The notes: generated by a model not told the origin, from the sequence alone. 64,000 bases of DNA from Naegleria gruberi (GCA_000004985.1 GG738849.1); one strand, 5' to 3'; numbered from the stretch's first letter, positions 1-61,277 are shown. Program-made: numbers and translations.

Positions 1-1066
1 ATAATAATAATAATGAAATATTAATTCATCCATTAGAATTAAAACAAGATATAAAAAATTCATTAAGTAATATTAATAATACTTATTTAAATTATTATAA
101 ATCTATTAATAATATAAATGGTAATAATAATAATAATAATATTAAAAATAGAAGATTAAATATTTTATTATCACATTTAAATATTATAAAAAATAATAAA
201 TATATTAAAAATACATTTCATTATATTAATAATAATAATAATAATTTAAAAAATAATTTAAATAAATTAAAAATAATAATATTAATAATATTTATTTTAA
301 TAATAATAAAAATTAAATTTAAAAATAAAAATATTAAAAATAATTTTACATTAATAGAAATATTAATAGCAATTTCCATAATGGTAACATTTAGTGGATT
401 AACAAGTATAGTATATAATGATAAATTAATAGAAAGTAAAATATCATTTACAAAAATAGAATTAAATTTAATAATACAACATGTCTATTTATATTATATT
501 CAATATAATAAATATCCAATTAAATTAAATGATATTGAAAATATTAAACAAATTACAAATTTAAATGATAAATGGAATCAACCATATATGTACATTCCAT
601 TTATAGATTGGTTAAAAATTATTGAAATTTTACAATCAAAACAAATTAATGAAAAGGAATTAAATTATAATTTAGAATGTTTACAATCTTTAATTAATTG
701 TTTAATTAATTCACAACAATCAATTGATCCTAAAATATTACTTGTTCAAAGTTCAATTCAACCAATTTTATTTTCATTTGGTTATAGAAAACCTATTTTT
801 GTATTTCAAAATGATGATTCAAATGATTCAAATGATTTTAATGATTCAAATAATAATTCATATATACAAAGTAATGAATTTAAAGAAAGATTACAATTGG
901 TTTCACAATGGATTAAAATTGCACGTGAAAAATCTGTAAGTTTTTTTATTATTTAATATTTACAATTTATATATAATTTAAATAGGTTGGGTTAATTAGA
1001 GTACAAAATACATTACAACAATTACAAAATCAATTCAATACTACTAGTAGTACTACTAATAAATAA
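1..1066 (+). CDS. Asn-rich low-complexity protein, unknown function. 5' end lies outside the window. Two exons: 1..935 and 986..1066, intron 936..985.
   Basis: The reading frame is open from position 3 in the same frame as ORF 381..956. GTAAGT donor at 936 and AG acceptor at 984-985 restore the frame, giving ...IAREKS|VGLIRVQNTLQQ...TTNK and a TAA stop at 1064-1066. The 50-nt intron is AT-rich. Confidence 0.5.
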
Positions 1067-1069
1067 TAA

Positions 1070-3801
1070 TTAAATTTGTTCAAATTCAACAATCTTTCCA
1101 CTTGCCAACATTCTTTGAACTGTGCTTGTTGATGTTGAAGATGATGCAGATGGTGGTGTATTCTTTTTCTTCTTACTCTTTTTAGAAGGTGGTGGTGTTG
1201 TTGAAGATTTGGTTTTCTTTTTCTTTTTTGGTTTTTCTTCTTCTTCATCATCGCTCATTTCATCAATATCACTACTACTCATTTCTATTTCTTCATCTTC
1301 TTCATCAATATCACTACTACTGCTACTCATATAATCTTTATTCTCTTCTTCTTCATTCTCTTCTTTATCATCATTTTCATTTCCATTATCATTATTATCA
1401 TTTTCATTAATATTACTATTAATAGAAATGATATCATGTAAATGAATTTGTTCTTTTCTATTTGCATATTTATTTTTAACATATTCTCTTGCTAATAAAC
1501 CTTTTACTAATTTTTTCCAATTATTTAAAAAACGTTCATTCTTTTTTTTAATTAATTTTTCTAATTTAACTTGTTGATATTTTAAATATTCCATTCTAAG
1601 TAATTGTTCATTTTTAGAATGTATAATAATACCATCATAAATAGGTATACTACGTTTATGTTTAAATTCAAAACCAATCATTGCTCTAGAATAATCTATT
1701 TTTAATTTTCTAGCAACAATTGTTAAACCTTTTAAAGGTTCATTATTTGTACTAATATGGCAACATCCAATTGGTAAAAATTTATCATTCCATAATTCAT
1801 ATGATCCTTTATCTGATTTTGGTATTTCATCATTTTCATTTATAATTGGTACTTGATAATCTTCTGTTTGCCATTCACCAAATAATTCTGTTAAATCTGA
1901 ATTTTTACTAAATTTAGAAGATTTTACTATTTTGTAAGGTTTTTCATTTAATTTTACTTTTTTAAAATAATCTCTTAACCATCTATCACGTGTATGAAGT
2001 GGTTTTATCCATTCTCTTAAATAAATTGAATGATTTTTAATTTTATTTATAGAATCTCTATCTTTGGGATATATTGTATCATATTTAGTAATAAATTTAT
2101 CAATTATATAAATTGGATGTGTTTGGAATTCTTGTATTGATGTTGGTATTTCTTTTAAAATTAAATTTTTAATTTCTTTAATTATTTTTTCATCAATTTC
2201 TATAAATGTATTATTTATATATATGGAATTATTTAATATTAATTCAGAATTATTTTTTATAATTAATTTATCTTGTTCTTTTTTAATATTATTATTATTA
2301 TTTGTATTATTATTATTTTTATTATTAGTAGTATTTTTATTATTAGTAGTAGTATTTTTTAAATTACTATTTATAGTATCTTTAATAATTACATCTTGTT
2401 CTTCATCATCATCTAATACATGTATAATTAAATCTTCATTTTCTAAATCAATAATTTCATTATTTTTAATTTCATTATTATTTATATTTATATTTTTAAT
2501 ATTATTATTATTTTCCATATTTGTAATAATATTATTTAAATTATTATTTTTTAATAAATAATTAGGATTTTTTAAATTAATTAAATTTTCATTAAATTCA
2601 AAAATTAAATTATTCATTAAAGTTTCAATTCTTAAATAATTTTCCTTTCCAATTAAAGTATTTGGATATTTACAAATTAAATATTTACTTGTTGTATTTC
2701 TAATAATAAAATTAAAATCTTTTAAAATATCAAATGAAAATACTATAATTGGAATTTGATTTGTTTTTTTATCTAATTTTTTAAAATATTTTTCTAAATT
2801 TTCAATTTTAATTTTTTCTACTTTAAAAGATTTATTTTTTAAAATTAATTTTTTAAAAATATTTTCACTTGTTGAATTTGGATTTTCATATTGAATTTCA
2901 ATCCAATTATTAAATTTAAATTCTTTCTTTTCTAATATTTCTATTTTTGTACAATATCTAATATTATAATTATTATAAATTAATGTAATTAAAATTAATA
3001 AATTTAATTCAAATATATTTTCAATATTTTTTTTAGAAATGTTAAAAATTACATTTTCAAAATTTTCTAAAATTTCAAATAAATTTACATTTTTAAATTT
3101 TTTAATTTTAAATTTTTTATATATAGTATCTAATAAATGATCAATAGATCTATTATCAATTAATTTTAATTCTTCTAATATACTTAATATAGTACCTTGT
3201 AATATTTCATTTTTAATAATTTCTAAAAATTTAAATTCATAATTAAAATAAATTAATAATTCTACAAAATTAATTGAACAATTTAATAATTGTTCTTTTT
3301 TAGTTTTTCTAATTATTTTTTTTCTTTTTTTAGTTTCATGTTCGTCATTTTCATTTTCTTCATTATTTATAGTAAATTGAATATATTCTTCACTTTCCAT
3401 ATTTGGTTCATCTATATTTGGTTCATCTTGTGGAATGACTTGTTCTTCCCATTCATCATTCTCTATATTTGATTCTGTTTGTTCTTCAAACATTTCAATT
3501 CTATCTTTTAATTCTTTAATAGTATCCAATTCTCTTTATATAGTAATATTAAATATTAAATATATTTAAATATTAAAATTTACCTTTCAATTTTTTGTTT
3601 CTTTTTTTTAACAACTTGCTCCTTTTCATATTCCTTTTCCTTTTCTTTTCTCTTTTTATTTTTAATTAATAATTGATCAATACTATGTGATGATTTGTTA
3701 TTTAAATTGGTAACAAGGCTTGTTTCTTCTTCATTGTCATCATCATCTTCATCGGAAGAAAAGGCATGTTTTGCTTTATATTTAACTCCGAAGGGTAACA
3801 T
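1070..3801 (-). CDS. XPC: XPC/Rad4 nucleotide-excision-repair damage-recognition protein. Two exons: 3801..3584 and 3533..1070, intron about 3534..3583.
   Basis: The C-terminal region GEWQTEDYQVPIINENDEIPKSDKGSYELW...FLPIGCCHISTN...ARKLKIDYSRAMIGFEFKHKRSIPIYDGIIIHSKNEQLL matches the BHD3 region of Rad4/XPC (WQTE.Y...PIGC..L....ARKL.ID.A.A..GF.F). ORF 3580..3801 starts with ATG at 3799-3801 and ends in a GTAAAT donor. The acceptor is ...tataaAG at 3535-3534 and the phases are consistent. The C-terminus is acidic and Ser/Thr-rich. Confidence 0.8.
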
Positions 3802-5910: not shown

Positions 5911-6071
5911 AATAATATTCCAATAAATAAATTTATTTGAATTTCCTTTTCACAAGAAGTAGGCTGGAACAAATGAATGAACATGAGAAGGCTTGTTAGA
6001 CGAGAAGGCTTGGTTTTTGTTGTATGTAAATTTGGCGCCAACAAATTTACATACAACAACCACCAAAAAAA

Positions 6072-9000
6072 ATGGCCTTACACAACAACACTCAACAAAA
6101 ATGGTTTGGCTTTGTGACCTTTTCGGAAGGAAATCACACTACTACAACCTTTAAACATTCAATCTCAATAATAATTTTAATAGTAATATTAATATTTCAT
6201 ACAAGTTCCGTACGATCATCGATAACACTGAGTAATTCCACTTGTTCAAAAAGCTCTCAGTTTTTTGATTCATCATCAATGTTCTGTAAGGATTGTTCCA
6301 CTAATGAAGTATCCACGGATGGATTGTATTGTTACTGTAATGAAGGGTATAAGCTCACTTTTACTACTTCATCAAAGACTTGTGAGCAATGTACATTCGC
6401 ATCTTCAAGAGATCGGTCAATTTGTATGACATGTGGACCTTCAACTTTGGGATTTGACTCTACTCTAAAAGACTGTAAATGCAATGGAACTTCAAAATTA
6501 GTTGAAATAGATGCAGGTGGAAATTATCTAAGTGCCAAACAATGCATTTCATGTGGTTCAAAATCAATTCCTCATCCTTCGAATAGATATTTGTGCTCCC
6601 CTTGTCCTGATCCACTGATGCAAGCAAGTACAGATGGAACTTCCTGTGTTTGCCCTTCTTCACATCAATTAGTAAGTTTAAAAAGATATTTAAATGATAA
6701 AAACATGAGTTTAGTGGTCTAATATGTGCATTCTGAAAGATGCCTACCTTGATATCAATAGCAAATATCCTATTGATTCATCTGCCTTAATAACCTTTAT
6801 CCAAGTATTCGAAAATAGTCGACAAGATACCCCGTCAACTGAATCTGTGAGATCAAAGTTATTTTATGATTACTTTTATCAGGCTGGAGCTCATTGTAAA
6901 TCATTACAAAATGTCACTGCTTGCCAAATGCTTGCAAACCTGTGTACCTTACTCTTGTATGATGAATCTACTCCTGCTTGTAAAATGTATTACTCCATTT
7001 TCAATACACTAACTGAGGACAGAGTAAATGGTTTCAGCGGTTGGAAGAATGGCCTTCCATGGTTAAAGTACACTGGAACAGCAAGTGAAAATTTGTACAA
7101 TACTGATTTGCTTCAATCTGTTGGATTGAGTGGAAGGAAGGATAGAGTATCACGATTACAGTTTTATCTCTCCAAATTCAATGTCTATGGAAATTGGTTA
7201 GGTTTTGAAGAGTTGACCAATCAATTAGAACTATGTCCAACAAGTAATTTTCAAGGATCTGGTTTTTTAGATTTTGGAAACAATTATGTTAAAAATTGTT
7301 TTTACAATGTCCTCTCCTTACCTTATTCCCAATCTACTTTCTTTTATGAACTTTGTAAGTAATATGTCTTGTTTCAAAGACTAACCATTCAATTCAGATA
7401 TTTTGGACAGTGGCATACTCTACCCAGTTCCAGTTCAAATTCTTAAAGATGACAAGACATCGTTCGCTGATATTGGTACAAGTACTCTCTACAGAAGGTT
7501 CTTCTTGTACGACAACCTTGCTGGGGTCACTACCGATGGTACAACTCCTTCCGTTGTTAGAATTTTGGAGAGTGCTCAGCTCTATGTATCATTAAATCCA
7601 TCAGTTTCAGAAAAAATTTATCCACCAACACTTACCTTAAAGTATACATCAAGAAAGATACAAAGTTCAACACTTTCAAAATTTGTAACCTCTGACACTG
7701 AATCAATAACCTCTCCAACAATTTCATTCTCTGCCTCCTATATCCAATCTCAACAAACACCTTGGATTATTGTTTTAGTGTTTGCAATTATTGGTCTAGT
7801 AGGAAGTCTATTGACATCCTGCATTGCTAGCTACAGATACTCAAGAAGAAGATTAGCACAAATAGACTTTCCAACTCTTGGAAAGTTTATATTTACTTTT
7901 TGTGCCCACTTTTCAAATTATTTATTTATTGTAATTATTGTAATTGTCTCTCTATACTATTTATTTTTCAAGTTACAAGACAGTGTGTTTATTTTGCTTC
8001 CAAATTTTGATGGAGCTGATAAGTGGTATTTCTTTGTCATTGTTTTTGTAGCTCTATTGGGTAAAACCCTTGATTTAGGTTATGAGTTTTATAAGCATTG
8101 CAGTTATGATATTTTCTTTATGGATTGGGAAAAGTCAAAAGGAAAAGTAGTTGGAGTTGGAGGAAGAGCTGAAGGATCTTATTCATCAGTCAGTATATGG
8201 AGAAGCTATTTCATTGCTAAAGAATGGGAGAAACTCCAAGAATTAACATGGACTAGTTTGGAATTCACATTGATTCTGGTTCTTCTTATTTTAGATGGAG
8301 GTAATGTAATTCAATTAGCATCTACATCACCATTGGAGAATAAGATTCTTACAAATTATCCTAGTCATCCTATTTTGAGACTTGCACTCTTGATGTGGTT
8401 CTACTTGTCCATATCATTGCTGCAATATTTGTTTTTCAAATTTGTATTGTACAGATTTACTAGAAATCCAATCACTTCACTCATTGATACATGCTCAATT
8501 GCCAATATCAGTATTGTAATACTTGACGAATTACATTCAGGATGTTATATTCATGGTGAGAGTATATTCCGTTTTGCAGATTCTAATATGAAAGAGTTTT
8601 ATGAGGGCCTTTCTCTTGAGAGTAATGATTTCTTTCCAAAGAGAGGATTGCTTCAAACCTCGAGTGAACAGAAAAGAAATGTTGTATTAACATTTGATTT
8701 GTACATTTCAAGGTCTGTCAGAGAAAACTATGATAACTTCCTTCTCATTCCAATTCAGGAGGAGGAAGCAAAGAATGGTTTTTTAAGAAGAGCAGTAGGA
8801 AACCAGAGGGGTGTTTCAAATCAAAGACCAAACATGCCCCAAGTTAATACTTTCAATAATAATAACCAATTTCCTCCAAATCCTCAAAATCATGAAACCC
8901 AACAACCTAATCCAACAAATCCTGTCACTCTTAATCCTCCAATTGAACAACCCATCCAACAGACAATGAGAGAGAGAAACCAAATCAACAATCCTCTTCT

Positions 9001-13400: not shown

Positions 13401-14733
13401 TTTCTAGCCTTTGTTTCGTATAAAGTTTTATCGTGTGTTTTTTGTTTCGTTAGAGAGGAGTGTGTGATATTAGTAGTAGGGACTTTCTCACGTGTGTTTA
13501 TATTGTTGTTATTGTGTTTAAAGAAATTATTGTTGTTGCAACCGAATAGTCCCACAAGAAAGTGTCTGTTGTGTTTTCAACAATTTTTTTTTAAAGAAAG
13601 TGTTACTGACAGCAGTATGACAAGTACACATTCAGTCCAATTGTGGGTGCGCATCAATATTAAGAGGTGGTGCAGCAGAAGCACAATCATGAATATCGTT
13701 GTTGAGTTACGAGCAAGCATATACGAGAAAGTGTTATCTGTACAAAATCTCGCTCGCAGTTTAAGAAAAGCAGAAATTTTCCATAGAGCGTTCACATCAG
13801 TGATTGGGCGCCAAAAAGACAATAAACAATTGCCTGTTGCAATAAACGTTCACTCGCCTCCATTTTTGAATCTGATGGGTTTTGACGTTGCATTTTTGAA
13901 TTAAAAAGGCTTTCATGACGGCTTACCAATTAGACCCAAAAGTCTTTTGTTTTTATCAATTGAGGAAATCGATACGTAAAATGGCAAGGTTGAAGTTGTG
14001 GAATCTAGAATTATTTTGAGGTTTATTGGAGAATACTAGCTTGTTATACCTTTTGATACAATTTACTCTGGTGATGTTCATTTACTACTGGGTTTACAGT
14101 TCAGTTGTTGATGAATCATTTTTGTTAATGAACACTACCACTTTTAAACGGTCAAATATTATTGAGAGAATTATGAATGGTTCAATTTGATTATCAATAT
14201 CATAATGTGATTATTGTTTAGAATAATAATATTGTAATAATGATGCAGTATAGTGTCGGTAAGAACAACGGTGGGAAGGATATGAAATGGATTCAGAATC
14301 GTTGTTCCAATAGAGAAATCCTTAATCACATACTAGTAACCTTCCAATAGGTGTCTTTTCAGTAAACATCTCTTAATGCGAAAAGGCCATTTTTTTGAGA
14401 ATTCCATTTACATATCTGAAACTTTATCTAAATTGGTGAAGTTGAAAAATGATGATTGTAAAAAGAATAAAAACTGTAGTTTCTGTTTGGGTGGCTTGTT
14501 TTTTTCAAATTCTTCTGTGAGCTTTAATGTTATTAACACTTTGGTTGTATTTCACAGAATTATGAAATATATTTGAATAAATATCCGAATAAGTGATCTA
14601 TTCGAATAATACAAATGTTACTGAAGCAATAAAGCGAATCACCATGAAGAAGAACTGAAAGTTATCGGATCAAAAGTTGTGTGAACATGTCAAACCTAAT
14701 TTCCATAAACAGACAATGGCTGTTTGAAAAAAT

Positions 14734-14830
14734 TGATCAGAGTGGGATTTGAACCCACGCCCTTGCGGAACACGGTATTAATATTAGTTTTACCTTAACG
14801 TGTCGTCTTAGACCACTCGACCATCTGACC
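14734..14830 (-). tRNA. tRNA-Leu, anticodon AAG, with an intron of about 17 nt 3' of the anticodon
   Basis: Reverse complement reads GGTCAGATGGTCGAGTGGTCTAAGACGACACGTTAAGG[TAAAACTAATATTAATAC]CGTGTTCCGCAAGGGCGTGGGTTCAAATCCCACTCTGATCA. It has a class-II long variable arm, T-arm GTGGG-TTCAAAT-CCCAC and a 7-bp acceptor stem with one G-U pair. The AT-rich insert sits at the canonical 37/38 position. Confidence 0.75.
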
Positions 14831-14943
14831 TTCGAACACAAACACAAAAACTCTGTTCAGTAGAGTACCCTTAATGAAGTTGTTGTGAGAAGCTGTGCTA
14901 TTATCAAAATTACTGTAACGTTAACATATTTCAAAAGAAAAAA

Positions 14944-17900
14944 ATGTATGCACAATTTTCAGGCTTATTTAAGGTTGGGGAGACAGTGTACGTTAATCAT
15001 CCAACAGAGTCATGGATAGTCGGTAAAGTTGATGCAGCCGATAAGAATAACAAAAAGGGAGCCTATTCAATAAAACCAGTTGCGAGCCTTAACGACTCTT
15101 TAGCTAATGAGGTAAGTTGGAATCATCATTATCTAATGGTAGTAATTTTATATGTACACCAATATTAAGAACCCTATAAATGTTAATGAGGATCAATTAT
15201 TTAAATACACAAATGACTTGGATAAACTTGATCATGATGATTTGTTATCAATGACAGAACTTCATGAAGTGACTCTTCTAAATTGTTTAAGAAATAGATA
15301 TAAAAAGGATGTAATTTATACATTGATTGGAGGAGTTTTAGCTATAGCAATGAATCCTTTCAAATGGACAATTCCCTATGTTCAAGATGATAAGATGGAC
15401 TTGTATTGTAATAAGGGAAAGAATTCAAATCTTCTTCCACATGCTTGGAGTATTGCTGATAATGCCTATCGAATCATGAAGGAAACAAAACAAAATCAAT
15501 CCATTCTTATTAGTGGTGAATCTGGTGCAGGTAAAACTGAAGGCTGTAAGACAGTCATCAAATATCTATCTAAATTATCATGTTCAATAACAACTGATGA
15601 AAAAATTAGAGAAAATGCTTCGGGTATTGCTATCAAGATACAAGAATGTTCTCCAATTCTAGAAGCTTTTGGTAATGCTAAAACTCAACGTAATGACAAT
15701 TCATCGAGATTTGGTAAATTTATTATTATGCAATTCGACAAGGAAGGTGTAATTTTAGGAGCCTATATGTATAATTATCTATTGGAAAAATCAAGAGTAA
15801 TATCACAACCACTAGGAGAAAGAGGATATCACATTTTCTATCAATTATTGGCCGGAGCTGATGCAAAGAGAAGAAAGGAATTATATTTATCAAAGGCTGA
15901 AGATTATTCTTGCATTAATCAAGGTAAATGTTTTACAGTCAATGGTGTGGATGACGGAAAAGAATATGCAGAAGTTATAAAGGCCATGAATATTGTGGGT
16001 ATTTCTCAAACTGAACAAGATGCCATCTTCCGAATTACAGCAGCTGTATTACATATGCAAAATTTGAAATTTAATCTTAGAGGTGATGGATCTGAAGTTG
16101 AAAACAAGCAAACTTTAAAGAATGTTGCAGAACTTTTAAGAGTTGATCAAGTTGGTCTTGAAAAGGCTCTTACAACAATGTATGTCTCTGCAGGAAAGGA
16201 CTTGATTTTGAAAGGTTTAGTACCTGCTAAGGCATGTGATGCAAGAGATGCTTTTTCAAAGGCGTTATATGATGCTGTATTTAACTGGATTATTAAGAAA
16301 ATTAACGAAAATCTCGATTCATCAAAGCAACATAAGGTTGATAACTTTATTGGATTGTTGGATATTTATGGTTTTGAAGCTTTTGAAAAGAATAGTTTCG
16401 AACAATTGTGTATCAATTTTGCCAATGAAGCACTTCAAGGAGTTTATAATAATTACACTTTTAAGAAAGATGTGGATGAATGTAGAGAAGAAGGTATTGA
16501 AGTTACATCAGTTACATTTAATGATAATCAAGAATGTATTGAATTGATTCAAAAGGGTGTTGTCAATTCTTTAACTGATTGTTGTAAATCTAGCTCTACA
16601 GATATCGACTTTTTGGAAAAACTCAAAAAGGCCTATTTGAAAAAGACAGGATTCTTTGATGCTTCTCCATTGAAAAAGGAAGATTTTATTGTTAGACACT
16701 ATGCAGGTGATGTATCATATAATGTTACTGGGTGGATTGAAAAGAATAAGGATACTCTCAATGGAGACTTGTTCAAATTAACCAAGACAAGTACTTGTAA
16801 TTTTATTAAGGACCTTTTGGAAGATACTGGTAATGCTAAAGACACTGTTGGTGAATCATTCAGAAAACAACTTAACAATTTATTAACCACTATTAATTCT
16901 ACTAGGCCTCACTATATTAGATGTCTTAAGCCTCACCCTGCTAAGAAACCAAACATGTTCAGTGTTACTGAAGTTATGAATCAATTGAGATCATCTGGTG
17001 TTTTGGAAACTGTTAAAATCAGAAGAGAAGGTTACAGTGTAAGAATGCCTTTTGATCAATTCTATCACAAATTCAAGATACTTCTCCCACCAGCCCAACA
17101 AAAAGGATCTACCAAAGAAGAAATGAGAGTATCATGCGAAGAAATTATCAAATCAGTCAAGTTTGATAAAGTTAAAGCACAAATTGGTAAATCAACAGTA
17201 TTCCTTCGACACTATGCTTACTCTGATTTGGAATCATTGAGAAATGAAAAGCTCGTTCAATATGTGATAACAATTCAAGCATCCTTTAGAAAACTCAAAG
17301 CTATTAAGGAAGTTGCAACTATGAGAAGACTCAAAAAGGAAGAAGAAGAAAGAATTTACTTTGAAAAACATAGAGAAGAAATTGAAAGAAAGAGAAGAGA
17401 AGAAGAAGAAAAACTTCGTATAGAGAGAGAACGTATTGAAAAGGAAGAAGCTGAAAAGAGAAGAATTGAAGAAATCAAAAGACAAGAAGAAGAAAAAATT
17501 GCTAGGGAAAAGAGAGAACGTGAAGCTGTTATCCTTAAGGAACAAGCCAAACTTAACAAGTTGAGAGAAGTTCAAATGAAAAAGATGGAAGAACTCAAAC
17601 GAATTGAAGCAGAAAAGGAAGAAAGAGAACGAGTTAAAAAGGAATTGGAAGAACTCGAATCTGGTAAAGCCAATATGGAAGAACAAGAAAGTGTCAAGAT
17701 TTGGAAAGTTGATGAAGGAAAGCTTGTTGGATTTACTCTCAGTGAAGCTAGAAAGGATTTAATTTTCCGTATCAAAACTGATCAACTCTTTACTCTAGAA
17801 GAATGTAAAATATTAATCAAGGAAATTGTTAGAATTATGAAACGAGATGCTGAAAGAGATTTTAAGAATTTGATATTCCTAAGCAAGTTTAGAACAGAAG

Positions 17901-18331
17901 TTTTATTCCCAAAACCTATTGTATCTGATTATATTTCAGAAACACATGGATTGGATGGATTTGCTGATAGTATTGATGTTAAAAAGATGATTTATGGAAA
18001 GGTTACAATTCGTCCATTAGATCCACTTTCAAGTAAGGATACCATTCTCATTGCTAAGGAAAAACTCAAATTACTTGTATTGAATATTAATAAGAATATT
18101 GTCAAGTTAATTGATAATGCTCTCAGACAACGAAAAGAAAGACTTTTAATTATTGCAACCATTTTAGAAGAATTGGAAACAAGTGTCATCAAAAAGTACT
18201 TGCATCCAAATGAACTTTTAGTTGTAATGGCAAAGATTAAGAGTCAATCCACTAGTAATTCCAATGCTGCATCCCAACAACAACAACCTCAACAACAATT
18301 TGCATCTGCCTCCGAAGAAAAATTGTTTTAA
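14944..18331 (+). CDS. Myosin heavy chain: N-terminal SH3-like domain, motor domain, IQ motif, long ER/K-rich single alpha-helix (SAH) domain and a short tail. Two exons: 14944..15111 and 15170..18331.
   Basis: Exon 1 encodes MYAQFSGLFKVGETVYVNHPTESWIVGKV..., then a GTAAGT donor at 15112 and an AG acceptor at 15168-15169. The motor domain carries the P-loop GESGAGKTE, switch/relay motifs such as LDIYGFE, and the IQ motif IQASFRKLKAIK. Residues around 740-870 form an EEEERIYFEKHREEIERKRREEEEKLRIERERIEKEEAEKRR... SAH-type segment. Confidence 0.85.
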
Positions 18332-18335
18332 AAAA

Positions 18336-19646
18336 ATGGGAAAACGTAAAAAACAAAATAATAATACATCAACTACTACTTCAACTACTAACAGTGGAGA
18401 AAATGATGGAGAAAATATTCTAGTCTCCATACACGAAGGAGAAGAAACAATATTGGAAGAACCACCAAATAAAAAGAATGAACCTAAAATTATACAATTA
18501 TTATTTTCCAAATCCTTTCTAAGTATTGAACAAGCTTGTGAAACTATTCAAACAATTTTAGAAGATGAAAATAATCAACAAGATTCAATTAAAATGTTAA
18601 AAAATCATAAAGCTATTGAACGATTAATTGAATTATTAACAATTGAAAAACATAATCCAATTATTTTAGAAAGTACAAAAGCTTTGAGAAATTTAAATCT
18701 TGTTGATGAAAGTATTTTTACAAATATGGAAAGTGAATTAATTAAACAATTATTTAAATCAATTAATTATTTACAAACAAGTGATAATAATTTACATCCT
18801 ACAATGATTTATGATCATAAAGATAAAACAAGTATTGAAAATATTATAAATACAATTTTAGAATTTTTAATTCAATTAATTCCACAATTTACAGAAATAA
18901 TTTTAAATAATTTAGATTTAAATATTTTAAATATTTTAAAAAATCAATATAAAGAAAAAGTTTTAAAAATTATTTATTTAATTACAAAGGAAATTGAAAC
19001 TAACGTATTTGGTGATTTATCTGATTTATCCGAAAATGGAATTATTAATACTTTTATAAATGGAATTTCAATTAATTTGAAAAATTATGAAAAAATTGAT
19101 AATATTTTAAATGATATTAAAAATTCAGAAAATTTATCTCTAAATTTAGAAATTTTAATTCATTATGTAATTAATAATGAAATTTATAATTCAAAAGAAA
19201 TTTTTGAAATTTTAATTAAATTATTAAAAACAAATGAAATTTTAATTTTAGAATTATTAAATATTATTAATGAAAAAATTGATAATATTGAAATTATTGA
19301 ATATATTTTAAATAATTTTAATTTATCAAATTATCCAAATTTGTTAATTCAATTCGGACAAATTAATCAATTTAAAAAGAAAATTTTAAATTTATTTATA
19401 GAATCAATTAATCAATGTAAAGATTTACCAATTTTATTAGAATTATTAAATGGAATTTTTGATGTTTATGCAGATGAAAAGGGAATTGAAAAGGAATTAT
19501 TAAATTTATTACCATGTTTGGAAGGTGTAGTTAAAAATAAATTATTAACAGAAACAAATGATGAAGAATTGTTAGAATATATTGATGAAACTTTGGAAAA
19601 TTTAATTAATTACATTGATTATATTAAAAAATCATGTCAACAATAA
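18336..19646 (+). CDS. Leu/Ile/Asn-rich helical-repeat protein, unknown function
   Basis: ATG at 18336 (MGKRKKQNNNTSTT...) lies only 4 nt after the myosin TAA stop. The listed ORF start at 18264 overlaps the myosin CDS and is unlikely. Open frame of about 436 aa ending in TAA, with no recognisable catalytic motif. Confidence 0.5.
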   Translation: MGKRKKQNNNTSTTTSTTNSGENDGENILVSIHEGEETILEEPPNKKNEPKIIQLLFSKSFLSIEQACETIQTILEDENNQQDSIKMLKNHKAIERLIELLTIEKHNPIILESTKALRNLNLVDESIFTNMESELIKQLFKSINYLQTSDNNLHPTMIYDHKDKTSIENIINTILEFLIQLIPQFTEIILNNLDLNILNILKNQYKEKVLKIIYLITKEIETNVFGDLSDLSENGIINTFINGISINLKNYEKIDNILNDIKNSENLSLNLEILIHYVINNEIYNSKEIFEILIKLLKTNEILILELLNIINEKIDNIEIIEYILNNFNLSNYPNLLIQFGQINQFKKKILNLFIESINQCKDLPILLELLNGIFDVYADEKGIEKELLNLLPCLEGVVKNKLLTETNDEELLEYIDETLENLINYIDYIKKSCQQ

Positions 19647-19757
19647 AAAAACATTTAAAGTTTCTTTTTTTGTAAAGTATATTTATTGTAAAAATGTAAA
19701 TTAAAAGTTATTAAAAAGTGTTGATATGTTTTGTAATTTTTTTAATAATAAAAAAAA

Positions 19758-21530
19758 ATGTGTGGTATTGGATTTTATGATTCACAATGTATTCTATCAT
19801 CATCATCATTAGAATTATTAAATAATAATAATTTAATTCATTCCGATGATGAAGATGAAGATAGAGTTGGTAATAATGATGAATTGAATAACAAGAGCAA
19901 TTCATCATTATCATTATCAAATAGTAATGATGATAATAATGATGAAAATTGGAATGAAATTGAAAGTTTAATTGAAAATTTAATAATTAAAAGAGGACCT
20001 GACTATTTAGGAAAATTAAAATTTAATAATTTTACATTTATTTCAAGTGTTTTATCATTGAGAGGTGAAAATGTTACAATTCAACCAATTTCAAATTCTG
20101 ATCAAATATTATTATGGAATGGTGAAATATTTAATTATCCAAATATGGAAAATGAATTAAAAAATGGTAATGATACAAATTTATTATTTGAATTATTAAA
20201 TAATAATATTAATGATAAAAAACAAATAATTTCTATATTTAATAATATTCAAGGACCATTTGCATTTATTTATTTTAATATTAAATTTAATTATTTATTA
20301 TTTGGAAGAGACAAAATTGGAAAGAGAAGTTTAGTTTATTATTATTCTAATGGAAAGTTGATTATTTCTAGTAATAGTATTCCTGGAATGGAATTTAAAT
20401 CAATTCCACCATTTATATTTCAATTAAAAAATAACCAATTAAAGAAATATGAATATAAAAGTAATTTTATTAATAAGGAAAGAATTTTATTTAAAGAATT
20501 ACAAGATTTACATTCAGAAGAATATAAAAATGTATTAAATGATTTTTATAGAATTTTTTCAGATTCAATTTCTAAAAGAATTAATTTTTTACAAAGACCA
20601 AAATTAACAAATTTGGAAAATACTAAAAATGGAAGTGAAAACAATTTAAATGATATTGAAAATGAAGCAAATTATGCAATTTTATTTTCTGGTGGAATTG
20701 ATTCACTTGTTTTAGCTTCACTTTCACATTTAAATTCATTAAATAATTTAAATGAAAAAATTACATTATTAAATGTTTCATTTGGTAATTCATTGGAACA
20801 AGTATCAAAAGGACATGATAGAATTCAATCTATTCAAGCATTTAAAATGTTAAATGATAAATATGGAAATAGATTTAATTTAGTATTAATTGATGTTTTA
20901 AAAGCACAAGTTGAAGAATATGCCAATACTATTAAACAATTAATTTATCCAAACAATACAGTATTAGATTATACTATTGGATGTGTATTATGGTTTGCTA
21001 GTAGAGGAAGAGGGTATTTATATGGGAGTGATACAAGTCAATTGGTACAATCTCAAAGTAGAGTTTTATTGTGTGGAGTTGGAAGTGATGAACTACTTGG
21101 AGGTTATCGAAGATATCTTAAAAGATTCAAAGATGAAGGATGGGAAGGTTTAAATGAGGAAATGAATATGGATGTAAATAGATTGTGGTATAGAAATTTG
21201 GGAAGGGATGATCGAATTATTGCATCACATGGAAGAGAGTGTAGACATCCATTCTTGGATGAGAATTTAATTGAATTTGTTCAATCACTTCCACTCAGTT
21301 TTACTGTTGATTTGAGAGATAAGATTGAGTTTGAAATTAAGGAAGGTTGTAATAATTCAACTAAATTCCAACAAGCTAAGGATAAACTTTTGTTAAGACA
21401 AATGGTTTCTCAAATTTTAGAACTTGAATCCAATCAACCTAAAAAAGCCATGCAATTTGCTTCCAATGTTGCTAAAATTACCTTAACAACAAGTAGAAGA
21501 AAAGAAAGAGGAAATAAACGTATTGATTAA
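19758..21530 (+). CDS. Asparagine synthetase domain-containing protein (ASNSD1-like class-II glutamine amidotransferase)
   Basis: MCGIGF at the N-terminus gives the Ntn-amidotransferase catalytic Cys2. The SGGIDS PP-loop of the asparagine-synthetase domain is present. An Asn/Asp-rich insert follows. Single 590-aa exon. Confidence 0.75.
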   Translation: MCGIGFYDSQCILSSSSLELLNNNNLIHSDDEDEDRVGNNDELNNKSNSSLSLSNSNDDNNDENWNEIESLIENLIIKRGPDYLGKLKFNNFTFISSVLSLRGENVTIQPISNSDQILLWNGEIFNYPNMENELKNGNDTNLLFELLNNNINDKKQIISIFNNIQGPFAFIYFNIKFNYLLFGRDKIGKRSLVYYYSNGKLIISSNSIPGMEFKSIPPFIFQLKNNQLKKYEYKSNFINKERILFKELQDLHSEEYKNVLNDFYRIFSDSISKRINFLQRPKLTNLENTKNGSENNLNDIENEANYAILFSGGIDSLVLASLSHLNSLNNLNEKITLLNVSFGNSLEQVSKGHDRIQSIQAFKMLNDKYGNRFNLVLIDVLKAQVEEYANTIKQLIYPNNTVLDYTIGCVLWFASRGRGYLYGSDTSQLVQSQSRVLLCGVGSDELLGGYRRYLKRFKDEGWEGLNEEMNMDVNRLWYRNLGRDDRIIASHGRECRHPFLDENLIEFVQSLPLSFTVDLRDKIEFEIKEGCNNSTKFQQAKDKLLLRQMVSQILELESNQPKKAMQFASNVAKITLTTSRRKERGNKRID

Positions 21531-32329: not shown

Positions 32330-33856
32330 ATGAAACGACAACTCGAAGATCCGATCCACTCGGAAAAGAAACAAAAATCAAATGATCACGGAAAGGATGT
32401 TATTAAAATGTTAGGATATACCAATGATGAAAATCCCTTCAATGATAGCAATTTATCGGAAAAATTTGTATGGACAAAACAAGAAGACAATTCATCATCA
32501 TTAACCGAAAATAAAAGGAAGGAAATTTTGTTATTAAAACAACAAAGATTGGAGAGAGAAATGGAAAAGAGAAGATGGGAAATGGAAAGAGAAAGAGTTT
32601 TCAGAGAAAGAGAAGCTGAAAGATTTGATGAATATGAAAAGAAGGAATCTGAATTTCACTTGAAACAAGAAAATTTAGCATCGTTTATTAGATTGAGAGA
32701 AAGAAGAGCAAAATTAATTGATTTTGTTACTAATAACTTGAAATATTTGAGATTTAAGGATAAATTACTTGGTGATGACTATGACAGCCATTTGATTTTA
32801 AGCAGTGAACATGAAAGAATTTATGGAGTTGAGTATAAAAAGCCATATGAAGTATTTCATGATAGAAAATTGCAAGATTTATTAGATTCTCAAGAAGATT
32901 TGGAAACAATGATTGAATGTGATATTGACTATCAAGATTTCTGGAGAGCACTTTCTGTAATTGTCAAGGATGAAATTAATCTTGCAAAGGAATATGAAAA
33001 GAAAAAGGTAGGAAAGGAAGAAGAAAGAACTAAAGATATTCATGCTTCAGTTGTGGCTGAAATTAAAGAATTGCTATCTGATAAGAATTTGGATGAATTA
33101 TTAGAAATGGAACAATTAATTAATGAAACATTAGATAATAGAGATGCTTCAACAGATGTTGAATATTGGGAAGGTTTGAAAAAGTACCTCCAAATTTACA
33201 AAGCTAGGAACATTGTCTCACAAATTCATCAGGAAGCAATCAAAGTTTATGAACAAATGAAAAAGAATGGTACAACTGATAGAATTTTCACTCAACACAA
33301 TACTCCTTCATCTTACAAGGATAATGCTACTCAACAAAAGAAGGATCATAACTCAATATCAGGAGGAGCATCCAATGAAGATGATAGATTAATGCGAGAA
33401 TACAAAAATAAGGAAACAGAGGAAGGTGATGAAGATACAGTGGAAGAAGTCAAACTAGTCAACCAACAATATGCATGGAATGATAAGTATAGACCAAGAA
33501 AACCTAAATTCTTCAATCGTGTAAGAACAGGATATGAATGGACAAATTACAATAGAACTCACTATGATTTTGAAAATCCTCCTCCAAAAGTCATTCAAGG
33601 TTACAAATTCAACATTTTCTATCCAGATTTAATTGACAGAAGTATCACACCATCCTATGCTTTAGAAAGAGATCCAAATAATGATGAATTCTCCATTCTT
33701 ACATTCCATTCTGGTCCACCTTATGAGGATATTTCATTTAGAATTGTAAATAGAGAGTGGGAAAAGTCTCACAGAAGAGGTTATAGATGTGTTTTCGAGA
33801 GGGGTGTTCTTCAACTGCACTTTAAATTTAAGAAATTAAAATTCCAAAAAGATTAA
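32330..33856 (+). CDS. CACTIN: Cactin (spliceosome-associated protein)
   Basis: C-terminal YRPRKPKFFNRVRTGYEWTNYNRTHYDFENPPPKVIQGYKFNIFYPDLIDRSITPSYALERDPNNDEFSILTFHSGPPYEDISFRIVNREWEKSHRRGYRCVFERGVLQLHFKFKKLKF is near-identical in pattern to the conserved cactin C-terminal domain. The mid-region ER-rich coiled coil (LEREMEKRRWEMERERVFRER) is present. Start is taken at ATG 32330 (MKRQLEDP...). The upstream part of the listed ORF is AT-rich leader. Confidence 0.85.
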   Translation: MKRQLEDPIHSEKKQKSNDHGKDVIKMLGYTNDENPFNDSNLSEKFVWTKQEDNSSSLTENKRKEILLLKQQRLEREMEKRRWEMERERVFREREAERFDEYEKKESEFHLKQENLASFIRLRERRAKLIDFVTNNLKYLRFKDKLLGDDYDSHLILSSEHERIYGVEYKKPYEVFHDRKLQDLLDSQEDLETMIECDIDYQDFWRALSVIVKDEINLAKEYEKKKVGKEEERTKDIHASVVAEIKELLSDKNLDELLEMEQLINETLDNRDASTDVEYWEGLKKYLQIYKARNIVSQIHQEAIKVYEQMKKNGTTDRIFTQHNTPSSYKDNATQQKKDHNSISGGASNEDDRLMREYKNKETEEGDEDTVEEVKLVNQQYAWNDKYRPRKPKFFNRVRTGYEWTNYNRTHYDFENPPPKVIQGYKFNIFYPDLIDRSITPSYALERDPNNDEFSILTFHSGPPYEDISFRIVNREWEKSHRRGYRCVFERGVLQLHFKFKKLKFQKD

Positions 33857-41138: not shown

Positions 41139-43511
41139 ATGTACAACGGTGATGACGATGATTACATTACCTCATCAGCAGTGTATTATCCCGAAGAGAG
41201 ACCACCTCCACTATGGTCACTCTATTTTCCCAATGAAATTTATCAACCGAATGTTTTGGATAAATACATAACAGTCTTGGAACCACATTTTAAAACGCAT
41301 AAAAACATTTACAAATTACAAAGTGTTGAAGGAGTTAATAATTATGTATTGACTATTGATTTGATTTTTATGTATAATAATTTGGATCATAATCATAAAG
41401 CATTTATGGAAAATAATATTTATAATAATCCTACTTATGCTTTGGCTGCTATTGAAATGGCTGCTCATAAAGTATTGCTTTGGAATGATGCAGAGGAAGT
41501 TGTAAAAGGAACTAAAATTAATGCGAGACTGATCAATCACTCAGTGTTTGTATCATTGAGAAAATTGAAATCAAATTCAATGGGAAAGTTTGTGTCACTC
41601 AAAGGAACAGTTGTAAAAGCAAGTAATATCAAACCTATTGTTACAGAGATGACTTTTGTTTGTGCAAAATGTGGAGCCAAACAGAGAAGACACTTCAAGG
41701 ATGGAAAGTTTATTCCACCAACCAAATGTAAAACACACTCATGTAAATCAAAAGCATTCAATCCAGATAGAAGTACTGCATCCACTGTTGATTGGCAAAA
41801 AATTAAAATTCAAGAAGTATCCGAAAGTGACGATTATGAAGCAGGTAGAATTCCAAGAACTATTGAATGTGAAATTACAGAAGATTTAGTCGAGTCATGT
41901 GCTGCTGGTGATGAAGTTATTGTTTGTGGAACAGTCAAGGTCATAAACAGTGAACAACAAGAGTATAGTAGAGGAGCAAAAGGAACTACAAAGAGAATGT
42001 ACTTTTTATATTTAGAAGGAAATTCAATTACAAATACGAAATCAACAGACAAAGGAGATGATACTCAATCATTTAGTACTAATGACTTGGAAGCAATCAG
42101 AGAAATGGGTTGTGAACCTGATATTTTCAGATTGGTTGTCCACTCTCTTTGTCCTGCAATTTTTGGACACGATATTGTAAAAGCTGGTCTTGCATTAACA
42201 TTATTTGGAGGAGTTCAGAGATATACCAATGCTAAAGATATGTTGACAGTTCGTGGCGATCCTCATATCCTGGTTGTAGGTGATCCAGGTTTGGGTAAAT
42301 CACAATTATTAACAGCAACATCACACGTAGCTCCTCGAGGTATCTATGTTTGTGGTAACACAACAAGTACATCAGGTCTCACGGTTACTGTAACAAAAGA
42401 TGTTTCAACAGGAGACTTTTCATTGGAAGCAGGTGCTTTAGTATTGGCGGATCGTGGATGTTGTTGCATTGACGAGTTTGATAAGATGAGTAATGAACAT
42501 CAAGCTCTTTTGGAAGCTATGGAACAGCAAAGTATTTCAGTTGCCAAGGCAGGTATTGTTTGTAATTTACCAGCCAGATGTTCTGTAGCCGCTGCTGCCA
42601 ATCCAGTTGGAGGCCACTACAATAGAGCTAAAACTGTTGGTGAAAATTTAAAGATTAATCCAGCCCTTCTTTCAAGATTTGATTTAATTTTCATCTTATT
42701 GGATAAGCCAGATGAGCTCAGAGACAAGCTTCTTTCAGAACACGTTTTGAAACTTCACTCTGGAAACACAACTAGAACAGGTTCAGCTCTCTCCACCTTT
42801 ACCACAAAATCTGCACTGAGTCAAGTTGGTACTCAACATGGACAAACATCTCTGAAGGAAAGATTGAAACCAAAAAAAGGTGAAACTTTTGATGTTATTC
42901 CGCCAAGACTTTTGAGAAAATATATTTCCTATGCCAGACAATATGTCATGCCAAAACTTAACAATGATGCAAAGAAGGTATTACAAGATTTTTATGTAAA
43001 ACTCAGAAAATCACACCACAGTTCTGAAGCAACACCTATCACAACAAGACAATTGGAATCATTGATTAGACTTTCACAAGCTAGAGCTAGATCTGAATTG
43101 AGAAGTGAAGTGACAGAAAGAGATGCTTTAGATGTTGTAGAGTTAATTAAGGAATCTATGTTTGATGTCCTTACAGATGAAAAGGGAAGAATTGACTTGA
43201 CACGTGTAACTGGTATGAGCAAAACCAAACAACAAAATGCCTACATTGAACAGCTCACCAAGATTGCAGACTCTAATGGACACGGTCCTATGTTTGAATT
43301 TAATGAAATGGTTCAATATGCTCAACAAATGGGACTTACAGAAGACCACAGAATTCTCATTGAAAGACTTAATAACCAGGGTTATATTTTAAAGAAGGGA
43401 CCTGGTGTTTACAAGCTCACAACCTGTGCTTCTACAACCACTCCAACCAAACCAAAGCGTAAATCTAGATTGTCACAAGAGGAGGCTTCCCAAAATGATT
43501 ATGAGGAATAA
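41139..43511 (+). CDS. MCM8: MCM8 DNA helicase (minichromosome maintenance 8)
   Basis: N-terminal Zn-finger CAKCGAKQ...CKTHSCKS. Walker A GDPGLGKSQLL is the MCM8-type canonical GKS, unlike the MCM2-7 GDP[GS]xAKSQ form. Walker B/MCM box CCCIDEFDKM. Arginine finger SRFDLIFILLD. C-terminal winged-helix region. 790-aa single exon. Confidence 0.85.
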   Translation: MYNGDDDDYITSSAVYYPEERPPPLWSLYFPNEIYQPNVLDKYITVLEPHFKTHKNIYKLQSVEGVNNYVLTIDLIFMYNNLDHNHKAFMENNIYNNPTYALAAIEMAAHKVLLWNDAEEVVKGTKINARLINHSVFVSLRKLKSNSMGKFVSLKGTVVKASNIKPIVTEMTFVCAKCGAKQRRHFKDGKFIPPTKCKTHSCKSKAFNPDRSTASTVDWQKIKIQEVSESDDYEAGRIPRTIECEITEDLVESCAAGDEVIVCGTVKVINSEQQEYSRGAKGTTKRMYFLYLEGNSITNTKSTDKGDDTQSFSTNDLEAIREMGCEPDIFRLVVHSLCPAIFGHDIVKAGLALTLFGGVQRYTNAKDMLTVRGDPHILVVGDPGLGKSQLLTATSHVAPRGIYVCGNTTSTSGLTVTVTKDVSTGDFSLEAGALVLADRGCCCIDEFDKMSNEHQALLEAMEQQSISVAKAGIVCNLPARCSVAAAANPVGGHYNRAKTVGENLKINPALLSRFDLIFILLDKPDELRDKLLSEHVLKLHSGNTTRTGSALSTFTTKSALSQVGTQHGQTSLKERLKPKKGETFDVIPPRLLRKYISYARQYVMPKLNNDAKKVLQDFYVKLRKSHHSSEATPITTRQLESLIRLSQARARSELRSEVTERDALDVVELIKESMFDVLTDEKGRIDLTRVTGMSKTKQQNAYIEQLTKIADSNGHGPMFEFNEMVQYAQQMGLTEDHRILIERLNNQGYILKKGPGVYKLTTCASTTTPTKPKRKSRLSQEEASQNDYEE

Positions 43512-47380: not shown

Positions 47381-47680
47381 TTTTTTTCAACGTTAAATAG
47401 GTGATGTTTAGGGAGGGCGCCACATTAATGAAATACAAGAAGAATTGACAACAGAATAGAAAAAATTGTACAAGTTCCAAAATCAAAACTAGATAGAGAG
47501 GTGTTGGAAGAAGGGAAAATTGATTAAGAATCAAGTACTTGGCCAAATTCATTAGCAAGCAAACCATCAGTTTTTAAGTATTAATTCTTAGAACTTGGGT
47601 ATTGATATTTGTCTAATTCCCAAAACAACCAATAGATCAGAGGCGACATCCTTAATCCCAAATTGAGTTACCAAATGTAC

Positions 47681-60817: not shown

Positions 60818-60937
60818 CGGCTACGGCCATATCACGATGAATGCACCTCATCCCGTCCGATTTGAGAAGTTAAGCATCGTCGAGCCACATCAGTACTGAG
60901 GTTGGAGACAACTTGGGAACCTGTGGTGCTGTAGTCT
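60818..60937 (+). rRNA. 5S ribosomal RNA gene, solitary chromosomal copy
   Basis: GGCTACGGCCATATCACGATGAATGCACCTCATCCCGTCCGATTTGAGAAGTTAAGCATCGTCGAGCCACATCAGTACTGAGGTTGGAGACAACTTGGGAACCTGTGGTGCTGTAGTC matches universal 5S blocks (CGGCCATA, CCCGTCCGAT, GAAGTTAAGC, AGTACT, GGGAA, GGTGCTGTAG). It includes GGTTGGAGACAAC, as I remember it from D. discoideum 5S. The terminal helix GGCTAC/GTAGTC is complementary. Confidence 0.8.
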
Positions 60938-60948: not shown

Positions 60949-61277
60949 ATTTTAAGATTTCACTTTTTGAAAATCGAACTACAAATCGTAAATAGCAAAT
61001 AACCAACACATGAAACGATCGAAACGATGAGCAAAATTGCCAAAACACCATACACACCAAATGCTTTTTTCATTTTTTTAAAAATTAAAAAATGATTTCA
61101 AGTCAACCAACAACAGAAACACACCAAAAGAATAAGAAGAAGAATTCTAACAATAATTCAGAGCCAGCATCATTGGAATTACAACCACGATCCAACAATA
61201 AATCCAATTCTAATATAACAATAATAATAATAACAATCAAAAAGTAAACAAAAACAAACCATCATCAACACCTTCCG

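Follow-up and report, generated by a model that had tools for sequence, protein, structure and literature searches.

A myosin gene and a SYO1/HEATR3-like gene follow one another on the same strand of the Naegleria gruberi genome, with only 4 nt between the stop codon of the first and the start codon of the second. We consider it probable that each is a separate gene with conventional Pol II expression and that their transcription units physically overlap. The pair lies in a stretch of 64,000 nt (GCA_000004985.1 GG738849.1), which we call the window. Its spacer is too short for a 3'UTR, a promoter and a 5'UTR, and we infer that the transcription start site (TSS) of the SYO1-like gene lies inside the myosin coding sequence and that the myosin poly(A) site lies inside the SYO1-like gene. 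A first-pass annotation of this DNA had placed 4 nt between the myosin TAA at 18329-18331 and an ATG at 18336 in another frame, and both the coordinates and the frame are borne out. Its further point, that a terminator plus a promoter would not fit between the genes, agrees with the 4-nt spacer, given that direct-RNA sequencing in N. gruberi puts the median 3'UTR at 39 nt (PMC11529991).

On the + strand the junction reads GAA AAA TTG TTT TAA AAAA ATG GGA AAA CGT. Homopolymers such as this T4A7 tract invite suspicion, and deletion of a single T would fuse the two frames. The junction could then reflect a wrong homopolymer length, faulty assembly, or a single gene interrupted by an intron that went unrecognised, and we regard the chance of this as close to negligible. 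Contig L005 (ENA ERZ929261), assembled from metagenome data of an unrelated project and representing a strain about 1% divergent, aligns to positions 14370-18548. Over these 4179 nt it shows 42 substitutions and 8 indels; seven of the eight indels fall in the non-coding upstream region and the other is an in-frame CAA deletion. Its junction, TTGTTTTAAAAAAATGGG, is identical to that of the window, T4A7 included, and because this assembly is independent, a homopolymer or assembly error is excluded. In the reference annotation the myosin has the same last residue. A fusion of the two ORFs through an intron was rejected, given that the orthologs are two separate genes and that no plausible donor, of the GTAAGT type, occurs near the myosin stop. 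For a single spacing, asking whether it departs from chance is the wrong test.

Table 1. Coordinates of the features discussed, counted from the first nucleotide of the window.
Feature	Position	Strand	Basis or remark
Myosin exon 1, 56 codons	14944..15111	+	sequence; spliced model = XP_002681567.1
Myosin intron, 58 nt, GTAAGT...AG	15112..15169	+	annotated protein joins ...LANE/NPINV...
Myosin exon 2 including stop; motor domain, coiled coil, tail	15170..18331	+	Pfam Myosin_head
N. gruberi-specific low-complexity C-terminal tail, 29 aa, SQSTSNSNAASQQQQPQQQFASASEEKLF	18242..18328	+	ortholog comparison
Upstream in-frame ATG of the SYO1-like ORF, within the myosin CDS (68-nt overlap)	18264..18266	+	sequence
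T4A6 element adjoining the ATG	18326..18335	+	last Phe codon (18326-18328) + TAA + AAAA
Myosin stop TAA	18329-18331	+	sequence
Spacer AAAA, 4 nt	18332-18335	+	sequence
SYO1-like ATG	18336-18338	+	sequence; frame +1 relative to myosin
SYO1/HEATR3-like ARM/HEAT-repeat gene, 436 aa + stop	18336..19646	+	Pfam, orthologs
AATAATAAT, with AATAAT at 18357/18360	18357..18365	+	weak candidate myosin poly(A) signal, 26-29 nt past the stop
First canonical AATAAA past the myosin stop, SYO1-like codons 45-46	18468..18473	+	candidate myosin poly(A) signal
Next in-frame SYO1-like ATG, past the conserved N-terminal block	18594..18596	+	not the start
AATAAA overlapping the SYO1-like stop codon (19644-19646)	19642..19647	+	dual-use stop/poly(A) signal
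MCM8 ORF	41139-43508		100% identical to an N. gruberi protein

Both members of the pair have the marks of real genes. The spliced upstream model matches XP_002681567.1 ('myosin [Naegleria gruberi]') residue for residue over 1109 aa, ending ...FASASEEKLF. The MCM8 ORF likewise matches, at 100% identity, another N. gruberi protein encoded on the same 850-kb contig, and the window is therefore nuclear DNA of N. gruberi. The myosin motor domain is full-length (PF00063 positions 1-679 of 679, E = 4.9e-213), and the protein shares 78% amino acid identity with its N. lovaniensis ortholog. On the strength of its Pfam matches, the downstream gene is a SYO1/HEATR3-like ARM-repeat protein gene: the predicted protein scores 40.6 bits against PF25567 TPR_SYO1 (cut-off 27, E = 2.8e-10) and 22.4 against Arm (cut-off 20.6). 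The ORF spans 1311 nt at a GC content of 17.8%. By our own estimate from base composition, the probability of so long an open frame arising by chance is about 1e-20; given this length and the presence of conserved blocks, we take the ORF to be a maintained gene. RIP-like mutation was considered as the cause of its AT richness and rejected, as the dinucleotide indices do not fit. Database relatives of the SYO1-like protein are confined to N. fowleri and N. lovaniensis, where they are annotated as hypothetical proteins, and to one metagenomic protein; identities are 36-37% by BLASTP and 40-43% in an alignment. The gene appears to be absent from the N. gruberi protein set.

Where the SYO1-like protein begins bears directly on how much room is left for a promoter. 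The first-pass annotation had taken 18336 as the first ATG of the downstream ORF. It is not the first, as the frame is open back to an ATG at 18264, but homology and start context favour it as the start. In the alignment the orthologs begin MPKR and the window's protein MGKR at 18336. Within the window, at least five of the six positions from -6 to -1 are A at 14 of the 24 gene-start ATGs, compared with 64 of all 2483 ATGs (2.6%); the A-run before gene starts often reads TTAAAAAA(A)ATG, and the ortholog starts carry the same A-run.

We think it unlikely that the protein starts elsewhere, either at 18264, with the two CDSs overlapping by 68 nt, or at the later Met of 18594, with promoter room ahead of it. 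Ribosomes scanning from a TSS upstream of 18264 would reach that AUG first, and since it is in frame, the product could still be functional. Counter to this, ATG 18264 has the context TTCCAA rather than an A-run and no counterpart in the orthologs, whose starts align with 18336, and the 24 additional codons are an out-of-frame reading of the low-complexity myosin tail. On this sequence evidence, 18264 is probably not the main start. The later Met is rejected because a start there would cost 22 alignment-invariant residues from PKIIQLLFSKSFLSIEQACETIQTI, the conserved block at the N-terminus. There is no AUG in 18267-18335, and therefore any TSS in that segment would give a leader free of upstream AUGs.

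Comparison with relatives indicates how the two genes came to stand so close. The order myosin then SYO1, on one strand, is kept in N. fowleri and N. lovaniensis, and in all three species a G-alpha gene lies upstream of the myosin on the opposite strand. Given this conserved synteny across three species, myosin and SYO1 are best regarded as two old, separate genes. The annotated spacer between them is 388 nt in N. fowleri and 112 nt in N. lovaniensis, compared with the 4 nt seen here. Collinearity of the myosin proteins extends as far as ...KYLHPNELLVVM.KIK, after which the species diverge. Beyond KIK, N. fowleri has 7 residues and N. lovaniensis 6, with 412 nt and 133 nt, respectively, from KIK to the SYO1 ATG; a metagenomic relative (L006) has 6 residues and no SYO1 gene downstream. 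These ortholog C-termini past KIK read QQQQHHP*, QQQHQQ* and QQSNTQ*. In N. gruberi, KIK is followed by 29 low-complexity residues, and the SYO1 ATG comes 94 nt after KIK. The corresponding 87-nt segment sits where the relatives have 3'UTR or spacer. Of the 108-nt difference in spacer length from N. lovaniensis, 69 nt is thus accounted for by extension of the ORF and 39 nt by shrinkage.

We interpret the gap as a likely by-product of genome compaction combined with a lineage-specific extension of the myosin ORF. On this reading the ancestral stop codon just past the conserved KIK was lost, and the myosin ORF now continues across sequence that serves as 3'UTR and spacer in the relatives, to end at a TAA in the A-run of its neighbour's start. 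The present TAA is composed of a T from the T-run and the first two A's of SYO1's A-run. The ancestral stop is not precisely placeable by alignment, as the spacer DNA is too divergent from that of N. lovaniensis. In N. lovaniensis an AATAAA lies 42 nt past the myosin stop and 71 nt ahead of the SYO1 ATG, and the N. fowleri spacer holds only a TATAAA variant. With AATAAA only 71 nt from the ATG, the promoter of SYO1 and the 3' end of myosin would already be interleaved in N. lovaniensis.

Tight packing is the rule in this part of the genome. In a rough gene map built from ORFs and Pfam matches, the eight same-strand stop-to-ATG spacers of the window measure 4, 89, 104, 111, 161, 167, 300 and 595 nt, so that the myosin-SYO1 spacer is the smallest of the true tandem spacers and most of the others fall at about 90-170 nt. 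An apparent 1-nt tandem junction at 6722/6724 was discarded as an intron of the Meckelin gene rather than a gene pair. Among convergent neighbours, stop-to-stop distances include 4 nt between MCM8 and an unknown gene, 5 nt between the bromodomain and PQ-loop genes, 11 nt between the UFD1 and TPR genes and 20 nt between the AsnS-like and WD40 genes. Where stops are 4-20 nt apart, 3'UTRs must enter the neighbouring CDS, and transcript overlap is therefore routine here. The first-pass annotation had regarded such spacing as out of the ordinary for two eukaryotic Pol II genes. That is right for eukaryotes in general, but in this region the pair is the extreme of a normal pattern.

Poly(A) signals in the window follow the same economy. 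In N. gruberi, cleavage takes place 15-20 nt past AAUAAA, with UGUA and U-rich sequences as auxiliary elements, and 11-13% of stop codons overlap AAUAAA, forming dual-use stop/poly(A) signals (PMC11529991). The stop codon lies inside AATAAA in the SYO1-like, UFD1, bromodomain, PQ-loop and Not4-like genes of the window, and overlaps or adjoins it in two more. AATAAA is strongly depleted in sense-strand coding sequence, with none in myosin, where about 8 are expected, and two internal copies in the SYO1-like gene, where about 10 are expected; this avoidance fits a functional signal. The myosin stop itself and its surroundings lack AATAAA; the first copy comes 137 nt downstream, inside the SYO1-like gene.

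Taken with the choice of start codon, this setting suggests how two independent mRNAs could be made. The SYO1-like mRNA would start within the last ~100 nt of the myosin CDS or in the T4A6 element, and would be translated from the AUG at 18336. With translation beginning there, this mRNA must start further upstream, and as just 4 nt of non-coding DNA separate the genes, its promoter would lie in the 3' coding end of myosin, most plausibly in the 87-nt species-specific tail segment; alternatively, T4A6 may act as an initiator. The myosin mRNA would be translated up to the UAA at 18329-18331 and cleaved and polyadenylated within the first ~15-50 SYO1-like codons, using the candidate signals AAUAAU at 18357/18360 or AAUAAA at 18468. 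Its predicted 3'UTR is ~45-50 nt or ~155-165 nt, and either length would include the SYO1-like start codon. This retains one part of an earlier suggestion, that of a promoter in the myosin 3' end with overlapping or coupled units. The later-Met start to which that suggestion was tied falls away with the invariant residues that it would remove.

Some observations count against this layout. No UGUA occurs in the 40 nt that precede the candidate AAUAAA at 18468, and the SYO1-like gene's own mRNA would need to bypass this signal. Myosin also lacks the stop-proximal poly(A) signal of many of its neighbours, which a read-through transcript would predict as well. The literature searched held nothing specific on 5'UTR length, TSSs, promoter motifs, Kozak context or overlapping transcripts in Naegleria; expression vectors use ~1.1 kb of upstream DNA (PMC12845041).

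The alternative to independent mRNAs is that the pair is translationally coupled on one RNA, by reinitiation or by a +1 shift that yields a fusion, which seems to us improbable. In the first form, a true bicistronic mRNA would carry both ORFs, and a ribosome ending at the UAA of 18329-18331 would reinitiate at the AUG of 18336. The 4-nt distance falls in the working range of termination-reinitiation, no AATAAA is found at or near the myosin stop, and the two genes share a strand in an order conserved in three species. We nevertheless judge such an mRNA to be quite unlikely. The upstream ORF has 1109 codons (3.3 kb), and a dedicated RNA element is normally required for reinitiation past long ORFs; the RNA around the junction (18236-18400) folds no better than shuffled sequences (z = 0.05). 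Leaky scanning is impossible through a 3.3-kb ORF full of AUGs, and any RNA reading through would be cut short at the AATAAA of 18468. In the relatives the genes are 112 nt apart with an AATAAA between them (N. lovaniensis) or 388 nt apart with only the TATAAA variant (N. fowleri).

The wider genomic context argues the same way. Heterolobosea lack a polycistronic architecture, having ~2 genes per same-strand run, or directon (bioRxiv 10.64898/2026.07.29.740908), and strand alternates often among the genes of the window. The long same-strand arrays of an operon-like organisation are not seen, and the tight coupling of the two ORFs is not kept in relatives. The dicistronic transcript with reinitiation that the first-pass annotation had listed as an option thus found no positive support, in view of the 3.3-kb upstream ORF, the fold score and the AATAAA 137 nt downstream.

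The second form of coupling is a +1 ribosomal frameshift at UUU-UAA (18326-18331), in which tRNA-Phe would re-pair on the U4 run while the stop is slow to be read in the A site. The product would be a myosin-SYO1 fusion, ...EEKLF-KK-MGKRKK.... Arguing for this case, the +1 frame past UUU continues as AAA AAA AUG GGA, in exact register with the SYO1 ORF, and a stop directly after a shifty codon is the layout classically associated with +1 frameshifting, as in prfB, antizyme and Euplotes. However, one in three downstream ORFs fall in the +1 frame by chance, and the layout is absent from N. lovaniensis and N. fowleri, with their genes 112-388 nt apart. The fold score likewise gives no sign of a stimulatory structure, the myosin mRNA probably ends before the SYO1-like ORF is complete, and there is no functional rationale for linking a myosin to an adaptor for ribosomal-protein import. 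We consider a frameshift very improbable.

If the layout of overlapping transcription units is right, the locus would place a Pol II promoter wholly inside an upstream CDS and a poly(A) site inside a downstream CDS, a clean example from nature in a eukaryote that is free-living and can be cultured. It would also illustrate a one-step route to such a layout, in which a stop codon is lost and the ORF runs into the start context of the next gene. The locus would be convenient for defining the Naegleria core promoter and for the study of transcriptional interference. For gene prediction in Naegleria it carries a caution, the SYO1/HEATR3-like gene being apparently missing from the protein set. The pair alone does not alter general knowledge of eukaryotic gene expression. 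Should coupling prove true instead, a free-living eukaryote would provide a cellular, non-viral instance of a start codon coupled to the stop of a very long ORF.

Several known systems offer points of comparison. In the termination-reinitiation of calicivirus TURBS and influenza B M2, a start codon likewise stands only a few nucleotides from a stop on one strand, and cellular polycistronic mRNAs have been described in fungi and green algae (bioRxiv 10.1101/012542). The N. gruberi junction differs in having no evident structured element upstream (z = 0.05) and in following a very long ORF, and the pair lies 112-388 nt apart in its Naegleria relatives. Giardia genes have AT-rich initiators (AATTAAAAA) and very short 5'UTRs. 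The TTAAAAAA(A)ATG context of the window resembles this initiator, a likeness that is a lead only. If transcription starts inside the motif, the SYO1 5'UTR could be just a few A residues.

The ultrashort 3'UTRs described for N. gruberi (PMC11529991) are a precedent within the species: many stops of the window, including that of the SYO1-like gene, lie inside AATAAA, and convergent neighbours are 4-20 nt apart. The myosin differs from the dual-use stops of that study (PMC11529991) in having no AATAAA at its stop, the next lying 137 nt away in its neighbour's CDS. That work covers 3' ends, and not tandem pairs with a spacer below any 5'UTR plus promoter (PMC11529991).

In functional terms the parallel is with the overlapping transcription units of the microsporidia Encephalitozoon cuniculi and Antonospora locustae and of nucleomorphs (Williams et al. 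2005, Corradi et al. 2008, via PMC3629993). There too, spacers are too short for UTRs and promoters, and transcripts start in the upstream gene, end in the downstream gene, or both, each gene remaining its own unit; this class is defined by mapped mRNA ends, whereas the overlap of the N. gruberi pair is predicted from sequence. N. gruberi, with a genome of roughly 41 Mb, is a free-living amoeboflagellate with introns, and not a reduced parasite or the remnant of an endosymbiont. Its extreme spacing stems from recent ORF extension rather than from loss of spacer alone. The arrangement is an extreme but explicable case of the overlapping gene expression known from compact eukaryotic genomes. What is distinctive is a tandem pair in a free-living protist with a traceable origin, the extension of one ORF into the spacer ahead of the next.

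The N. gruberi v1 annotation probably lacks the SYO1-like gene, an ARM/HEAT-repeat gene related to SYO1/HEATR3 whose ATG lies 4 nt beyond the myosin stop codon. The database relatives found for its protein come from N. fowleri and N. lovaniensis, plus a single metagenomic protein, with no N. gruberi entry among them, unlike the adjoining myosin, which is annotated as XP_002681567.1. The omission may perhaps be explained by the 18% GC of the gene combined with its 4-nt distance from myosin. AATAAA is strongly avoided in coding sequence genome-wide, and despite this the SYO1-like coding sequence holds two internal copies (18468-18473 and 19536-19541). The first of these would be the canonical poly(A) signal nearest to the upstream myosin gene.

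Tight spacing is also seen at convergent gene pairs, with stop codons only 4-20 nt apart (43511/43516, 46349/46355, 27419/27431 and 21530/21551). On each strand, several of these stops are contained within AATAAA; between the bromodomain gene and the PQ-loop gene, for example, lies the near-palindrome AAATAAATAATTTATTC. With stops this close and several embedded in the hexamer, the predicted 3'UTRs of convergent pairs must run antisense to the coding sequence of the neighbour.

Across the window, most gene starts carry an A-run immediately 5' of the start codon, TTAAAAAA(A)ATG. Scored as at least five A among the six preceding positions, it occurs at 14 of the 24 gene starts compared, versus 2.6% of all ATGs. 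We interpret the motif as an element that may act as an initiator or leader. It also points to revised starts in some ORFs, including one at 32330 for the cactin gene; for the Smr gene, a start at 61092 is possible. Further upstream, 30-50 nt from the Meckelin and PQ-loop gene starts, are E2F-like sequences containing GGCGCC, which are possible promoter elements.

An intron-containing tRNA gene, which ARAGORN missed, precedes the start codon of the myosin gene by about 113 nt and lies on the opposite strand, and a dispersed 5S rRNA gene occupies the spacer separating the P-type ATPase gene from the Smr-domain gene.

Features of the window, with position, strand and supporting values
Feature	Position	Strand	Gene or details
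E2F-like, GGCGCC-containing; TTTGGCGCC within palindrome	~6030-6050	+	Meckelin
E2F-like, GGCGCC-containing; GTGGCGCC	~47400-47430	-	PQ-loop
TTAAAAAA(A)ATG examples	26297, 32319, 41129, 45350, 62933		
tRNA gene, intron-containing	14734-14830	-	Rfam tRNA, 47.3 bits
5S rRNA gene, dispersed	60819-60937	+	Rfam, 105 bits
SYO1-like gene	18336-19646	+	GC 17.8%, GC3 5.9%
AsnS-like gene			GC 23.7%, GC3 9.6%
Rad4/XPC-like gene			GC ~18%
ORF	381-956		GC ~18%

Two sharply AT-rich islands stand out, at 18500-21000 and 1-3500, and a RIP-like dinucleotide signature was not found for them. The genes concerned (SYO1-like, AsnS-like, Rad4/XPC-like and the ORF at 381-956) have lower GC than the intergenic sequence of the same window (24-32%). 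The SYO1 orthologs of N. fowleri and N. lovaniensis have a GC content of ~32%.
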